Shown here piece after piece: positions 1 through 20,635 of a stretch of 64,000 bases of DNA. Below the pieces are notes generated by a model. That model was not told the origin of the DNA, did not search any database, and saw only the letters and a program-made list of their open reading frames with translations. How positions within the stretch are numbered: position 1 is the first letter of the stretch; each line of letters starts with the position of its first letter. The translations under genes and the position numbers were made by a program. This DNA comes from a virus (lineage: Duplodnaviria > Caudoviricetes): the IMG/VR virus record IMGVR_UViG_3300027804_002812, positions 224,001 to 288,000 of that record, one strand, 5' to 3'.

Positions 1-1417
1 TTAGAAATAGTGTCGATTCATAGTCTCGTCTTCGGTCCAACGATGAATAGTTTATTCCAGTCTTTGCTCCAGTTGTCGGACCTTGACTTATATAAGCAGC
101 AGCTGCCTCCATATCACCATCATCAATCGCATCTTTTATTTTTTGACCGTAATCTCTGGCGGTTATAAAATATGGACCAACATTATATGAGAAACTCATC
201 AATGATGCTTTTTGTTTATCATTCAACCCATCCCAATTACTTACACCAAGTTGTTTGGCAATCAAAGGTGCAAATGTATTTTTTAATTGGTAATCCAAAG
301 TTTCCTCAGCTTCTTCTTTTGTCCATCGAGTATCTGCGGTAACATCTTCTAATTTACCATTTACCAATTTCTTACTTGACCCATATCCCCCTCTCCATGT
401 ACCTTCATCCTCAGAAGGTCTACTTGTAAAAGTTTCGAATTTTCTTATAAGTTGTTTTGACATTTCCAACCAATCACCTGTCAAAGATATTTTTTCCCCT
501 CCCACTGTTGGGTCAGATAATTTATTTATGTCCTCAGAGGTAATCCCTTTTTGTTTCAACATATCAATCAGTTTATTCAACATCTCAGGAGTCGCCTTAC
601 CCATAGGTTTTGAAGTACCTACCGCTGCCTTGGATAATCCTGTTGCCAAATCACTCAAATTACCTGAAGATATTGCAACGTGAACATGAGGAGTAATACC
701 TCCACCTTGCATGATTTTACCAATTACATCACCTTGTTTTACTGTATCACCAACTTTTAGTGGAGAATCGATGTGGGTATAAAATACGTCTGGTCCATCA
801 GTACTTTTGATTACAACTTGGTCTCCATATATTTTTTTGACTCCACTTTTAACAACATTGGAGTCCCCCCCTTTGAAAAGTTCGACAACTCCGTTGGTTA
901 GTGAATAAACTTCCGTACCTACAGGAGCTGTAATGTCCCACGCATTATTATTATACCAACCTGATGCACTGTGGGTACCTTGACCTGGTGTACCAATTAT
1001 TCCACCACCTTGTGCAACCAATTTTACGGCTTCATTCATGGATTCATCAGTTCCCAAGTTTTCTTCAGTGAACTTATTAACTGCTGCAGCAGTCTCAGGT
1101 CCAAATAATCCATCAACACCATGAATTGGCAAATCATATCCAAGAAGAATCAAACCAATTTGCATTGATTCAACTTCTTTTTTGAATTCGTAACTACCTC
1201 GTTGTTGTTCAGAGATTCCACCACTTTGTGCCGCAGATTCCAATGTACTATAAAACTCATCTACATCATCACCAACCAAATCAGCTTTAGTCGGGTCATC
1301 TTCTTTTCTGTATCCCAAGTCTTTCAAAAATTTATCAACGAATTCTTGTTCAACAATTTGATTACCATACATCATGGAATGCATTCTCACCAATTCTTCG
1401 GTCAATGTTTTTTTCAT
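1..1417 (-). CDS. Multidomain peptidoglycan hydrolase: leader + PG-binding domain + M23 peptidase + GH24-type lysozyme (3' end runs off window)
   Basis: Missing from the ORF track; translated by hand from ATG 1417. It reads MKKTLTEELVRMHSMM, then GVDGLFGPETAAAV (PG-binding), WDITAPVGTEVYS...FYTH...PHVH (M23) and LIRKFE...GGYG...SFSYNVG (phage lysozyme). Open to position 2. Confidence 0.85.
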   Translation of the reverse strand, partial: MKKTLTEELVRMHSMMYGNQIVEQEFVDKFLKDLGYRKEDDPTKADLVGDDVDEFYSTLESAAQSGGISEQQRGSYEFKKEVESMQIGLILLGYDLPIHGVDGLFGPETAAAVNKFTEENLGTDESMNEAVKLVAQGGGIIGTPGQGTHSASGWYNNNAWDITAPVGTEVYSLTNGVVELFKGGDSNVVKSGVKKIYGDQVVIKSTDGPDVFYTHIDSPLKVGDTVKQGDVIGKIMQGGGITPHVHVAISSGNLSDLATGLSKAAVGTSKPMGKATPEMLNKLIDMLKQKGITSEDINKLSDPTVGGEKISLTGDWLEMSKQLIRKFETFTSRPSEDEGTWRGGYGSSKKLVNGKLEDVTADTRWTKEEAEETLDYQLKNTFAPLIAKQLGVSNWDGLNDKQKASLMSFSYNVGPYFITARDYGQKIKDAIDDGDMEAAAAYISQGPTTGAKTGINYSSLDRRRDYESTLFL

Positions 1418-4682: not shown

Positions 4683-5273
4683 TTAAAATCTTAAAATTCT
4701 TTCTTTGTTTTGAATATCTACGATGTGTAAATATATATCGTCAAGGTCTTCGCCTGATTCAATTTTGTCAATAACATCTTCCTTTTTATAAAGAGTGTTT
4801 CTAACAATATAGTCAATCATCTCTTCATCTGTGATTCCTTTAGGTTTTTCAGGTTCAGGAGTACACTCGTATTCTCTATCCGATGTGCCAATGTCTTCAA
4901 TAGATAACCCCGACTCTCCAACAATTTGTTCGAACTTAGGAACCATCGTCTCATCATACCATTCAAGAATCACATGCAAAACATATGACTTTCTTATGCT
5001 CAATAATTCTGAAAGAGTATCAACAAGACCTTTGGATACCATCAAATATCCTTGGTCAAATCTACCATCCTCAAAATAATAAATTGCGGTAATTGTTTCT
5101 TTTCCATCAAAACACCAATCCTCACGAAGATTTCCGTAATTACGTGCCTTCGGAATGACCTTACGTTTACCATTACCAATATATTGATTCATATATTTGA
5201 CAATAAAATTACTAATGGACTGACTACTCTTGTTAAGTCTTCTATATTGTTCTTCTGTTAGTATATATTTCAT
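4683..5273 (-). CDS. Leader-tagged hypothetical protein
   Basis: MKYILTEEQY leader; 196-aa ORF. Confidence 0.8.
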   Translation of the reverse strand: MKYILTEEQYRRLNKSSQSISNFIVKYMNQYIGNGKRKVIPKARNYGNLREDWCFDGKETITAIYYFEDGRFDQGYLMVSKGLVDTLSELLSIRKSYVLHVILEWYDETMVPKFEQIVGESGLSIEDIGTSDREYECTPEPEKPKGITDEEMIDYIVRNTLYKKEDVIDKIESGEDLDDIYLHIVDIQNKERILRF

Positions 5274-5274
5274 A

Positions 5275-5610
5275 TTAACTTTTTTTTATTTTGAACTCAG
5301 CCCAAGTGCTATAAGGAACAACTTGAGTACGTTCAACTCTCAGATTATATTTGCTTTCGAAATACTTTCCAAAAAAGTGACGAGCAGTACCTACGTCTAC
5401 CGAAAACATAGACATAACGTCCTTAATTAAATCCGTTAAAATGTATAAATCGTCAGTGAAGTTATGCCCTATTATCCCGTGTTCTTCACCAGGAAACGCA
5501 AAGACAGTATCAAGATACCTACCTCTCTTTTTCTTAATCCCCTTCAATCTACTATCCAAGTATTTGAATACAATACTCTCTAATCTACTTTCCGTGATGA
5601 TGTATTTCAT
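5275..5610 (-). CDS. Leader-tagged paralog family A protein
   Basis: MKYIITESRLE start at 5610; shares FKYLDSKL..G..SD.VF..PG...MFS....GKY.ESRYNL with neighbours. Confidence 0.85.
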   Translation of the reverse strand: MKYIITESRLESIVFKYLDSRLKGIKKKRGRYLDTVFAFPGEEHGIIGHNFTDDLYILTDLIKDVMSMFSVDVGTARHFFGKYFESKYNLRVERTQVVPYSTWAEFKIKKS

Positions 5611-5611
5611 A

Positions 5612-5992
5612 TTATTCTTTATCAAGTATTAAGTAAGTTCTGTCAAATCTATCATTATCAACCACACTACCAAACATACTTTTAATCCTCGGAGCATAAT
5701 CCACTTTCATGTTGTATCTACTTTCAAGATATTTCCCAATTACCTCAAGAACATCACCCTCTTTCATAGAAAACATAGTTTGTATTTCCTCAAAGAATGG
5801 AAAATAAATGTGTAAATAATTATCCCCTTTTTTATGATACTTATTCACCGCAAATAACCCAACATCTTTACCAGGAACGGAAAAAACAAAATCCGAAAAT
5901 TTCCCTTTCTTTATAACGGTTCCTTCCAGCTTACTATCCAAAAATTTGAATAAAACTTTTTCTAATTTACTTTCCGTAATGATGTATTTCAT
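5612..5992 (-). CDS. Leader-tagged paralog family A protein
   Basis: MKYIITESKLE; alignable by eye to flanking paralogs. Confidence 0.85.
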   Translation of the reverse strand: MKYIITESKLEKVLFKFLDSKLEGTVIKKGKFSDFVFSVPGKDVGLFAVNKYHKKGDNYLHIYFPFFEEIQTMFSMKEGDVLEVIGKYLESRYNMKVDYAPRIKSMFGSVVDNDRFDRTYLILDKE

Positions 5993-6010
5993 ATCTTATA
6001 AATATCCCAA

Positions 6011-6169
6011 TCATTTATTACATTCACCCTTCTTTCCGCATACCTCACAGACATTCCCCTGTGAAGCACAAGTTCCCTTAAACTCACCTCCCTTAAGAAA
6101 TATCAATCTTACGGACATCAATATAAAAAATAAAGAAATAAATCCAATGGTTATTAGTAGTGTTATCAT
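6011..6169 (-). CDS. Small membrane protein with four-Cys tail (NqrM-like / Bacteroidota small membrane protein)
   Basis: Hand-translated 52 aa: MITLLITIGFISLFFILMSVRLIFLKGGEFKGTCASQGNVCEVCGKKGECNK; ATGA overlap with 6166..6528. Confidence 0.65.
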   Translation of the reverse strand: MITLLITIGFISLFFILMSVRLIFLKGGEFKGTCASQGNVCEVCGKKGECNK

Positions 6170-6528
6170 ATCCCATCTACTTTCAATGCTGAAAACTCAA
6201 AACCACAATTCCAAGTTGCAGAAGTGATATTCAAATTATATCTATTTTCAATATACCTTGCAATTGTTTTCAAAGATTCTTCCGATTGTAGAGAGAACAT
6301 GTTTTCCACCTCACGACCCAATAATAGAAAAACATATAATTTTCCTCCTTTATCAGTTTTTTCCCATCCCAATATTCCAAGTTCTTTATCTCCGTTAGGT
6401 GCCATTTTAGGAGAGATAAAAACAACATCCGAAAATTTTCCCTTCACAAGTTCGACACCTTCCAATTTACTATCCAAGAATTTGAATATGATATTTTCTA
6501 ACCGACTTTCCGTGATGATGTATTTCAT
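6166..6528 (-). CDS. Leader-tagged paralog family A protein
   Basis: MKYIITESRLEN; paralog of 5275/5612/6530. Confidence 0.85.
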   Translation of the reverse strand: MKYIITESRLENIIFKFLDSKLEGVELVKGKFSDVVFISPKMAPNGDKELGILGWEKTDKGGKLYVFLLLGREVENMFSLQSEESLKTIARYIENRYNLNITSATWNCGFEFSALKVDGI

Positions 6529-6529
6529 A

Positions 6530-6865
6530 TTAATAACTATCTACTTTTAACGGTTTCAAATTGAAAATACGCAAGTACTTGTTGGCATCCACCTTCAAAT
6601 TGTATCTACTTTCAACATACCTTCCGATAACATCAAGAACATCAGATTCATCCATTGAAAACACATTTTTAACTTCATCAACAATTTCGTAATAAGAGAA
6701 TAATTGATTAGATTTTTTCCATCCCATCAATCCAAATTCTTCACCAGGAAACACAAAGACAATATCAGAATAATCTCCTTTCTTGAGTTCAATACCCTCC
6801 AACTTCTCATTCAAAAATTTGAATATTAAGTTTTCCAATCTGCTTTCCGTGATGATGTATCTCAT
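6530..6865 (-). CDS. Leader-tagged paralog family A protein
   Basis: Start revised to MRYIITESRLEN at 6865. Confidence 0.85.
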   Translation of the reverse strand: MRYIITESRLENLIFKFLNEKLEGIELKKGDYSDIVFVFPGEEFGLMGWKKSNQLFSYYEIVDEVKNVFSMDESDVLDVIGRYVESRYNLKVDANKYLRIFNLKPLKVDSY

Positions 6866-6887
6866 AACTTCTTCTTTGAATAGGGGG

Positions 6888-7205
6888 TTAATAATATATT
6901 GAGTAATAAACCGCCTTAATGGGATTATCAGGATATTTTTTTTCAAACCATCTTTGAATTAAATCTTCAGTCTCAGAAAAATTCCTGTTGAACAATCCAC
7001 TAATTGTTAAGAACAAATGCTGACTAACTCCCAAGTGTTGGTCAAGAAACTGAAATATCATATTTTCATTTTTATCAACAAGGTCGAAGTCCTCCTCCGT
7101 CCCAATTGTATGACTTGAATCTCTTTCGATAAGTTCCCCCACCACTAAAGTAATATACTTATCAACCAATTTTACAAGTCTATCTTCTGAAATAATATAA
7201 TCCAT
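6888..7205 (-). CDS. Leader-tagged divergent family A protein
   Basis: MDYIISEDRL leader; LGVSQ.LF..IS.LF...F.E...LI..WFE pattern. Confidence 0.75.
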   Translation of the reverse strand: MDYIISEDRLVKLVDKYITLVVGELIERDSSHTIGTEEDFDLVDKNENMIFQFLDQHLGVSQHLFLTISGLFNRNFSETEDLIQRWFEKKYPDNPIKAVYYSIYY

Positions 7206-7231: not shown

Positions 7232-7255
7232 AACCCCACCTATAAAGATGGGGTT
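7232..7255 (-). terminator. CCCCACC-family terminator
   Basis: AACCCCA...TGGGGTT with A-run (U-tract on minus strand). Confidence 0.75.
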
Positions 7256-7279: not shown

Positions 7280-7909
7280 TTACTTACCAGTTCTTGAAGT
7301 ATATCCTGTTGACGGTCTTTCCCCTTTTGCTGTCCGTATTAAAGCCTCTCGTTCTAGTTCCTCTTTTTCACCCGGTTTCAACGGTGGATAGGGTGTATCG
7401 TCTGAGGGTTGGAAGTTCGTTACCAAATTTCTAATAGGTCTCATAATTCTAGCCCATTCAGATTCATTAGAAATATCAGAACTCAAATCCGTGTATAAAT
7501 CAACATTGTAACTACTTTTATAAGCCTTTACCAATGCACAAAATTCACTAAATGATTTCAAATTTTCAAATGCTTTATAGATTAATTCTTCATTCGTTCC
7601 AACCCCTTGTACCGCATCTCTTATCATATCAGCAAACTGATTCACACGACCCCTATCTCTGTAAGAAGAATTTTCTTTGTTACATATATCACAAAACTCC
7701 TTAACTTTTTTGTCTGAATCTCCAAATCCAGTTAGGACTTGATTCAGCATACCCATCAAGTCTTGTTCATTAACCAAAGGTTTCACATCCCCAAGTTTCG
7801 AATTTAACAATTTAGAGAAACTCTCAGTCATAACCTTCATCCCTCCTGTATGTTGTTCACGGATGGAGTTCTTCTCCTGTTCCGATAAATCGTTTAATAT
7901 ATGTTTCAT
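7280..7909 (-). CDS. Leader-tagged protein with single annexin-like repeat
   Basis: DAVQGVGTNEELIYKAF...KAYKSSYNVDLYTDLSSDIS matches the annexin GxGT-DE...Y...L..DL..(E/D) repeat. Confidence 0.7.
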   Translation of the reverse strand: MKHILNDLSEQEKNSIREQHTGGMKVMTESFSKLLNSKLGDVKPLVNEQDLMGMLNQVLTGFGDSDKKVKEFCDICNKENSSYRDRGRVNQFADMIRDAVQGVGTNEELIYKAFENLKSFSEFCALVKAYKSSYNVDLYTDLSSDISNESEWARIMRPIRNLVTNFQPSDDTPYPPLKPGEKEELEREALIRTAKGERPSTGYTSRTGK

Positions 7910-7943
7910 AATTTTTAATTTATTATAAATATCTCAAACATTC

Positions 7944-7999
7944 AAAAAAAAGGGGTTGGGGATTTCCACGACCGAAGGGAGAAAGCGGATCCGAATACA
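7944..7999. repeat. Intergenic element copy 1 (A-run, GGGGTTGGGGATT, CGACCGAAGGGAG, AAAGCGG)
   Basis: Direct repeat of copies at 12421, 12907, 13614, 14478, 14895. Confidence 0.9.
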
Positions 8000-8007
8000 A
8001 ATAAAAA

Positions 8008-8030
8008 ACCCCACCTTTATGGGGTGGGGT
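8008..8030 (-). terminator. CCCCACC-family terminator
   Basis: ACCCCACC-TTTATGG-GGTGGGGT. Confidence 0.8.
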
Positions 8031-9903: not shown

Positions 9904-10581
9904 CTAATTTTTATCACTTAAGGCAACCCTGAGTTTATTTACATCTTCGTCCTCTTTTTTGGCATCGAAATAGTTTTTTGTAATATCATATCCAACACTA
10001 TATCCTACACCCACTCCCAAGTATTTTAATCCTGTTTTACCCAAATTTGCTAATGATGTTTTTATAGATGAAGATAATGGTTTTGATGCAGCTTGTTGAG
10101 CCAAAGTTTTGACGTGAGTGTCCAAAGAACTCTTAACAAAATCGGTTCCTTTTTTTATACCCTCAATGACGGCCAACTCTACTGAATCAGTAATTTTATC
10201 ACCTTTAGCTATTTTTTCAGCTAAGGCAGACATTCCTTTAACTCCTAGTTGTTTGATTGCAGGAATTCTATTTATAATAGCTAAAGCACCAGGCATCAAA
10301 GAAAATATTGCCACCAAACCTGCGGTTTTCGTGTCACCTTCTTTGTAATATAATGAGGCGTCCCCCAATCCGATTCCTGCTGATAAGAATGGACCAACGA
10401 AAGGTACAAAAGAACTTGCAAAGGCCAAAAGAGGTAAAAAGAAATGAGCATCTTTCACCATTAGTTCGCCCATCTTCATAATTGCCTCTGGTTTTTGGTA
10501 GTCATAACCACCTACAGGCCCTAAACCTATTGGTTGCTCAATGAGTAAATTATATTGACGTTCGGAAATAATATATTTCAT
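9904..10581 (-). CDS. Leader-tagged protein with hydrophobic Gly/Ala-rich helices (pre-toxin-TG-like)
   Basis: MKYIISERQY..LLIEQ leader; SFVPFVGPFLSAGIGLGDASLYYKEGD..AGL..IFSLMPG. Confidence 0.65.
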   Translation of the reverse strand: MKYIISERQYNLLIEQPIGLGPVGGYDYQKPEAIMKMGELMVKDAHFFLPLLAFASSFVPFVGPFLSAGIGLGDASLYYKEGDTKTAGLVAIFSLMPGALAIINRIPAIKQLGVKGMSALAEKIAKGDKITDSVELAVIEGIKKGTDFVKSSLDTHVKTLAQQAASKPLSSSIKTSLANLGKTGLKYLGVGVGYSVGYDITKNYFDAKKEDEDVNKLRVALSDKN

Positions 10582-20350: not shown

Positions 20351-20635
20351 ATGAAATACATTATCTCCGAGAGTCGACTTGATAACATCATGAAAAAGTA
20401 TTTGGACTCTTTCTTATTGGGTAAGAATGTAGTCGATAATAAAAGGGTTATTGCAGTGTATAGTGATGAGGAGGATTATTTACAATATTTCCCGAGAAAA
20501 AAAGAACTATTTATATTGGATGAATTCTTGGATGAGTTCGAGGCTATGTTTGGTCTTACTCGAAAAGAATCAATTAGATTCATTATGGATTGGTTCGAAA
20601 ATGAATTTCATGTGAAAGTTCAGATGGCTGGATAA
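20351..20635 (+). CDS. Leader-tagged family A-like protein
   Basis: MKYIISESRLD leader; MFGL....S...I.DWFENEF. Confidence 0.8.
   Translation: MKYIISESRLDNIMKKYLDSFLLGKNVVDNKRVIAVYSDEEDYLQYFPRKKELFILDEFLDEFEAMFGLTRKESIRFIMDWFENEFHVKVQMAG

Follow-up and report, generated by a model that had tools for sequence, protein, structure and literature searches.

The DNA analyzed here, which we call the window, covers 64,000 nucleotides, from base 224001 to base 288000 of an IMG/VR virus record that is 326,291 bp long and has a G+C content of approximately 33%. The source appears to be a distant, uncultured T4-like jumbo phage. Its 326-kb genome encodes a Gp23-family major capsid protein and gives a Peptidase_S77 match (78 bits), the family of gp21-type prohead proteases; this gp21 homologue is encoded at genome positions 140410-141126. 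A search with the capsid protein matched 2,528 phage records. The organisms most often listed are T4-like phages of Enterobacteria and cyanobacteria, and the nearest matches include Flavobacterium phage 'immuto' as well as uncultured huge phages. The host likely belongs to the phylum Bacteroidota.

The gene that is the subject of this report forms a stand-alone, one-gene unit on the minus strand, in which a preceding terminator is followed by the motif GATATTTAT, the open reading frame (ORF) and the gene's own terminator. The encoded protein has four parts: a leader of 48 residues, two capping helices, one annexin repeat and a disordered tail. The features of the locus, in window coordinates, are as follows.

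8008-8030: hairpin of a type like that downstream of the annexin gene, terminator of the upstream gene
7925-7933, minus strand: late-promoter-like motif GATATTTAT, 22 nt upstream of the ATG
7280-7909, minus strand: complete ORF of the annexin-repeat protein P0001, 209 amino acids plus stop, ATG start
7766-7909, minus strand: N-terminal leader, residues 1-48 (MKHILN..EQEKNSIREQH..MKVMTESFSKLL..KPLVNE), portable, with a predicted cut after E48
7676-7771, minus strand: two capping helices, residues 47-78 (helices 47-60 and 65-78; pLDDT 85-90)
7418-7654, minus strand: annexin repeat, helices A-E, residues 86-164 (the Pfam part, residues 91-150, is 7460-7639)
7595-7606, minus strand: G102-V-G-T105, the AB-loop half of a predicted type II Ca2+ site, in which G102, G104 and T105 are invariant
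7475-7477, minus strand: D145, the acidic residue in the alignment column of the annexin bidentate Ca2+ ligand (D/E in annexin VI repeats)
7283-7417, minus strand: tail rich in proline and charged residues, residues 165-209, predicted disordered (pLDDT 43-54)
7232-7255, minus strand: intrinsic terminator hairpin with a T-run, a 10-pair stem followed by TTTTATTTTA, which closes the one-gene unit

The spacer upstream of the annexin gene (7944-8007) carries an A-run/GGGGTTGGGGATT element that recurs between cassettes. In metagenomes, the protein has 990 homologous clusters, many of them already annotated with PF00191, and the start is kept at M1. No GenBank phage was matched by megablast with 7 kb, by tblastn with the whole annexin protein, or by tblastn with a 30-residue leader of the LTESDL type. 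IMG/VR searched with the annexin core alone yielded no close relatives, and the sole PHROGs match to the annexin protein is meaningless (E 0.036).

A preliminary description, made from the nucleotide sequence, had proposed an annexin repeat on the basis of a GVGT loop, a downstream D, NEE, and a Y..YN.DL..DL pattern. All of these elements are present in the translation (G102-V-G-T105, N-E-E at 106-108, Y130..Y134-N-V-D-L-Y-T-D-L and D145), and the reported distance of 39 residues from T105 to D145, where 38 is canonical, is exact. The assignment is backed by sequence, profile and predicted fold. The Pfam Annexin model (PF00191) matches residues 91-150 with an E value of 9.5e-6 and 26.1 bits (cut-off 25), and relatives score up to 29.8 bits. 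In a six-frame search of the 326-kb genome, this ORF gave the one Annexin match (27.4 bits). A profile built from 43 homologues (alignment A1) and compared with every PDB sequence matched annexins only, the best whole-chain E value being 8.7e-36 (annexin VI), with single repeats at i-E 1e-5 to 1e-3. In these alignments, the annexin repeats are matched one by one, and D145 falls on the acidic Ca2+ ligand. Further, a phmmer search with the 119-amino-acid core against 1.84 billion representatives recovered 574 proteins at E<=1e-3. Some of these are proteins of 500-3,300 residues with three to nine matched stretches, and all three such multi-repeat proteins tested with Pfam are annexins (170-259 bits). 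By these scores, the annexin match is far above chance level.

An AlphaFold2 model was built with alignment A1. Its core, residues 47-164, comprises seven helices with pLDDT mostly 85-95, of which residues 86-164 form the five helices A-E of an annexin repeat (pLDDT about 90-95 in this predicted model), the fold on which the preliminary assignment had been staked. The best 50 Foldseek matches in the PDB are all annexins. When residues 84-160 of the model were overlaid on single annexin repeats with VIA-align, Z scores ranged from 9.7 to 7.0, with an rmsd of 1.8-2.5 A over 72-77 residues. The best overlay has a Z score of 9.7 and 1.9 A over 74 residues, and the overlaid set includes the isolated domain 1 of annexin A1 (1bo9). 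Because the structure is a predicted model, fold and sequence do not count as independent lines of evidence, and sequence similarity alone may have led AlphaFold to an annexin geometry.

Within the repeat, the residues of the putative Ca2+ site are conserved. Among the 43 homologues of alignment A1, G102, G104, T105 and W152 are invariant, and D145, Y130, Y134, L138, D141 and L142 are conserved in at least 90%. The distance between the loop and the acidic residue is 38 in 122 and 39 in 84 of 222 phage-type relatives (206 of 222 together). The value of 39 in the window results from a one-residue insertion between helices B and C, as placed by the HMM alignment; a sister subfamily retains the canonical 38. 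About 90% of the 222 relatives have I, V, L, M or F between the two loop glycines. The type II Ca2+ site (a G-x-G-T loop plus an acidic residue) is thus, as judged by alignment, kept in the phage repeat, and the combination of conserved spacing and a hydrophobic loop tip is the pattern expected from selection on a Ca2+ site that faces a membrane.

The protein has one annexin repeat only: Pfam finds a single stretch, the genome gives a single match, and the core of four or eight repeats is absent. A second, degenerate repeat in residues 47-78 was considered and ruled out, since the model has two helices there and the one Pfam stretch is residues 91-150. A signal peptide or transmembrane (TM) segment was likewise ruled out (maximum 19-residue hydropathy 0.71). 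C76 in the second capping helix, which is part of a CxxC in the subgroup of P0001, and C124 in annexin helix C do not vary in either of the two subfamilies examined. A C76-C124 disulfide is plausible, and the invariant cysteine pairs suggest an oxidising compartment. The tail is replaced in homologues by variable tails rich in proline, threonine and glutamine. Many members, including P0072, P0075 and P0089, end in long repeats rich in proline, threonine, glycine and glutamine, such as KPTGG. That Pro/Thr-rich tails might serve as glycosylation substrates is pure speculation.

The window carries the soluble form, the minimal representative of a broader family. On 25 viral contigs, and likewise in hundreds of proteins from metagenomes, the capped annexin repeat is flanked by two further elements: on its N-terminal side a TM helix or a long, hydrophobic stretch rich in glycine and alanine, and on its C-terminal side a Cys-rich domain with a weak PG_binding_1/3 match. 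At least 120 full-length members of this form are present among 802 matches. In a sample of 25 members of the TM subfamily, Annexin was matched in 23, PG_binding_1 in 5 and PG_binding_3 in 5 (the PG_binding models at E<=1e-3). The C-terminal domain of this subfamily has a BLAST E value of 4e-4 to a Pfam-positive PG-binding domain, and four further cysteines are invariant in it; in view of these weak similarities, we call it PG-binding-like. Since most relatives place the annexin repeat between a membrane segment and a PG-binding-like domain, the cell envelope is the probable site of action.

The annexin repeat is a Ca2+-dependent unit of membrane binding, familiar above all from animal cells. 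Annexins are generally regarded as a eukaryotic hallmark with rare bacterial copies, and the preliminary description had accordingly spoken of sporadic bacterial copies. That statement is correct for cells and misses a large, almost phage-only family. A pattern-based scan with one motif, taken from the loop of the phage family, over one genome for each of 185,579 prokaryotic species, a design that can miss distant relatives, returned one true relative: a multi-annexin protein in a Haliangiales MAG (JBKJOI010000990.1; our contig L057). This protein exceeds 2,000 residues; downstream of its several annexin repeats lies a hydrophobic region rich in glycine. A Bacteroidales integrase also returned by the pattern is unrelated, with a chance match to the motif inside it. 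The 25 viral contigs were found with the same motif and a second one, so that the viral scan is not equal to the one-motif cellular scan. The family amounts to hundreds of clusters at 50% identity and is essentially confined to phages. In the literature that we searched, no published report of annexins in viruses or phages was found. The only systematic survey of bacterial annexins likewise reported none in viruses; it accepts single-domain bacterial annexins as members, and finds bacterial annexins to be commonest in Bacteroidota, with giant multi-repeat proteins in Myxococcota (PMC3894181).

Comparison with eukaryotic annexins (A2, A4, A5, A6 and domain 1 of A1) reveals common features, namely the five-helix repeat, which is predicted here and overlays the known structures at Z 9.7-7.5 with an rmsd of about 2 A, the G-x-G-T loop with a downstream acidic ligand, and a helix D of the form 'DL..DL..D/E', at 19-28% identity. 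However, the phage protein has one repeat instead of four or eight, and thus no annexin disc. Its repeat is capped by two extra N-terminal helices with an invariant Cys pair, glutamine replaces the usual lysine before the loop, the spacing is 39, and the protein is phage-encoded and fused to a portable leader. The bacterial annexins described by Kodavali et al. 2014 (PMC3894181) also bring such repeats into the prokaryotic world, some as single-domain proteins (for example, in Cytophaga hutchinsonii), whereas the phage family has its own N-terminal cap, Cys pair, leaders, and TM and PG-binding partners.

The leader is the second distinctive part of the protein. Its 48 residues are more strongly conserved than the cargo that follows: leaders 77-92% identical to it precede proteins that are otherwise unrelated, one of which has a Pfam PG_binding_1 domain, with at least three further unrelated cargos. 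Conversely, the annexin core is found behind at least four other leader types, including LTESDL-type, EKSRILEMH-type and MVQP-type leaders (examples are MKKVIRLTESDLVRLVKKVINEQ; MKNLFNNISESEKSRILEMHSGKKNVISEQ; MSNKII...KIEEQ; and MVQPQYSPQEAL...QPVNE). The junction between leader and core is always hydrophobic-x-E, mostly followed by Q. The leader is hydrophilic, has pLDDT values below 50, and is free of hydrophobic segments (maximum KD19 0.71). About a dozen genes with LTESDL-type and related leaders are present in the genome, concentrated at 3.4-16 kb of the window.

The end of the leader looks like a substrate of a gp21-type protease because it resembles a site in the phage's own capsid protein. 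BLASTP aligns H-L-I-N-E60/A61 of that protein with F-L-T-E65/A66 of T4 gp23 (the slash marks the bond), which is the T4 maturation cleavage site. The leader end, L-V-N-E48/Q49, resembles the capsid L-I-N-E/A, the motif being short, and the scaffold protein of the phage, encoded at genome positions 138501-140072, contains S-L-S-E-Q. Genome-wide, hydrophobic-x-E-Q is enriched only about twofold in N-termini, so the motif is weak evidence alone. In two metagenome homologues, P0106 and P0108, the leader-end motif (SKLGDLKPLVREE, or EIEEQ) is repeated between two cargo modules, which suggests a polyprotein-like tandem cargo with processing sites in between.

Other leader-tagged proteins of this genome have wall-binding or wall-hydrolase domains. 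A 473-amino-acid protein at window positions 2-1417 (minus strand; genome C1:223996-225417) joins a MKKTLTEELVRMHSMMYGNQIVEQ leader to PG_binding_1, Peptidase_M23 and Phage_lysozyme domains, and this double cell-wall hydrolase could be either an entry enzyme delivered by the virion or an unusual endolysin. Outside the window, a 505-amino-acid protein (genome C1:175238-176755, minus strand) has a MVQPKYSPEEAL leader of the MVQP type and a strong PG_binding_1 match. On related contigs (L052-L056), the syntenic slot of this protein is occupied by a leader-TM-annexin-PG-binding-like protein, and this is a case of cargo replacement at a conserved locus. Five small paralogous ORFs at window positions 5275-6946 and 20351-20635, of about 94-126 amino acids (one listed as 138 amino acids, from an upstream TTG), open with M(K/R)YII(T/S)ESRL(E/D) followed by a FKFLD/KKYLD-type sequence; four are in tandem and one is on the opposite strand. 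The ORFs 4683-5273 and 9904-10581, neighbors of these paralogues, have in common with them only an MKYI(I/L) start. To judge by the domains recognized, the leader-tagged cargo of this phage lineage is largely aimed at the membrane and cell wall.

Of 396 genes, 89 have the sequence TATTTAT in the 60 nt before their start, where 7 would be expected from the density of the motif, with position peaks at -11/-12 and at -20 to -26. It precedes the genes for the portal, prohead protease, scaffold and giant fibre, the annexin gene, and nearly all leader-bearing genes. The longer form GATATTTAT occurs 11 times in the window versus 2.1 expected. We call this motif late because it precedes structural genes; its role as a late promoter is assigned by association only, and the annexin protein would presumably be expressed late.

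The preliminary description had placed a single repeat behind a virion-type leader. The single repeat stands, and support for the virion role is indirect, consisting of the modular nature of the leader, the capsid-like motif, the gp21-type protease, and the upstream motif of head genes. The closest parallel is the T4 capsid targeting sequence (CTS), a stretch of 10 residues (MKTYQEFIAE). As in T4, unrelated and dispensable-looking cargo genes of a hypervariable cassette region have an N-terminal tag in common, whose last residues are hydrophobic-x-Glu. The genome also has a gp21-type protease, and the upstream motif is common to head genes. In contrast, the phage leader has 48 residues and belongs to one of several interchangeable classes, and T4 CTS cargo is anti-restriction, whereas the cargo here is envelope-directed (annexin, wall-binding domains and wall hydrolases). 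If the leader does act like a CTS, it would be an analogue of the T4 sequence, not a homologue. In T4, the internal proteins IPI-III and Alt carry the CTS, which the gp21 prohead protease cuts off (PMC3012670, PMC9958956). Internal proteins of the T4 type are as a rule directed against host defense (PMC3012670); in giant phages, long propeptides are removed from ejection proteins (PMC5694885).

These observations lead us to propose that the protein is loaded into the head, trimmed by the head protease, and binds the host membrane through Ca2+, a reading that, taken whole, we rate at about an even chance of being right. Under this proposal, the 48-residue leader most likely works in the manner of the T4 CTS: it would attach the protein to the prohead's scaffolding core, and the gp21-type protease of the phage would then cut the leader off after E48 (L-V-N-E/Q). 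The mature protein of about 18 kDa would comprise the two capping helices, the annexin repeat and the flexible tail, with Ca2+ held by backbone carbonyls of the G-V-G-T loop and by D145. By analogy with other annexins, the kept type II site and hydrophobic loop tip lead us to expect Ca2+-bridged binding to anionic lipid phosphates. Released from the virion at infection, the protein would attach to the host membrane surface in the Ca2+-rich envelope, possibly near the point of genome entry. Late timing, packaging, cleavage, binding of Ca2+ and lipid, and the stage of action are all elements that we infer.

Ca2+-dependent membrane binding in ejection or entry, as the preliminary description had suggested, is a reasonable inference, and relatives in which the annexin core is fused to a membrane segment and a PG-binding-like domain lend it further weight. 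Moreover, because the soluble members have no Sec-type signal, delivery by the virion would be the simplest route to the Ca2+-rich envelope. One argument against the proposal is that the destination of T4 internal proteins is the cytoplasm, a compartment with little free Ca2+; this would suit an annexin poorly unless it is released into the periplasm. Also, TM-bearing relatives could insert into the inner membrane of the producer cell rather than be packaged.

The leading alternative, which we consider possible but doubtful, is that the protein stays unpackaged in the producer cell as a late factor of the envelope or of lysis. In this case, the TM relatives would be inserted in the inner membrane, the leader facing the cytoplasm and the annexin and wall-binding domains lying in the periplasm, an N-in/C-out topology that fits the dominant architecture of hydrophilic N-terminus, TM segment, annexin and PG-binding-like domain. 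The soluble form would remain in the cytoplasm until holin lesions admit Ca2+ and would then bind the membrane; such release late in infection is the main alternative to virion delivery. The protein might disrupt, bridge or fuse membranes in the manner of spanins, set the timing of lysis, or act in superinfection exclusion. The late-type upstream motif on the annexin gene agrees with this alternative, the leader-tagged M23 and lysozyme protein could equally be an endolysin, and annexins aggregate and reshape membranes upon a rise in Ca2+ (PMC10882027). However, this alternative leaves unexplained why conserved, exchangeable leaders with a capsid maturation motif are found on dozens of unrelated soluble and membrane cargos, and the annexin gene, as a stand-alone cassette, adjoins no holin or spanin partner.

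A bolder reading, which strikes us as unlikely, is that the jumbo phage carries the annexin into the cell as a Ca2+-triggered patch or clamp for the membrane, so that the host is kept alive for phage production. When the tail breaches the envelope, or an abortive-infection pore opens, Ca2+ would enter and the annexin would lock on and seal or hold the damaged membrane. If true, this would be a bacterial-virus counterpart of the annexin-mediated membrane repair of animal cells.

We think it distinctly improbable that the protein is an accessory of the virion surface, fixed by its leader to the outside of the capsid or tail, with the annexin repeat binding phosphorylated lipid A, outer-membrane lipid or vesicles via Ca2+ and thereby aiding adsorption. 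Many phages need Ca2+ for adsorption, and the late-type upstream motif would suit a structural accessory; binding of annexin A5 to lipid A has been reported (cited in PMC10882027). Yet relatives with long hydrophobic or TM segments are unlikely to decorate the surface of a particle. The leader, disordered by prediction, has a protease-type motif at its end, and Pfam and PHROGs searches with the protein brought up no fibre, Ig-like or capsid-decoration domain.

Loss of Ca2+ binding is known from some annexin repeats. A repurposed fold that acts independently of Ca2+, as a structural module or one that binds proteins such as a cytoplasmic target in the host, would fit with the soluble form in the window, which has no membrane anchor, and with T4 internal proteins that act against restriction enzymes and are typically anti-defense (PMC3012670), but we judge it very unlikely, given that the Ca2+-ligand residues belong to the small set of positions that are invariant, or nearly so, throughout the family and that the partner domains of relatives point to the membrane and wall.

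The annexin reading of this gene is well supported, and the reading of its product as an entry protein with a virion-type leader is plausible. What appears to be new is a single annexin repeat with an apparently intact Ca2+ site that constitutes a large, almost phage-only family, capped by its own helices and carried on a portable leader. Judging by their architectures, members of this family are as a rule joined to membrane and cell-wall modules and carry a leader of the capsid-loading type. If the proposed head-loading mechanism holds, phage biology would gain a new class of envelope-acting cargo protein, and annexin research a minimal, 13-kDa one-repeat module (116 residues) for probing the abilities of a lone repeat. 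Viruses would then also have a place in discussions of how the annexin repeat arose and spread, and the large pool of single-repeat annexins in phages could bear on where that repeat came from.
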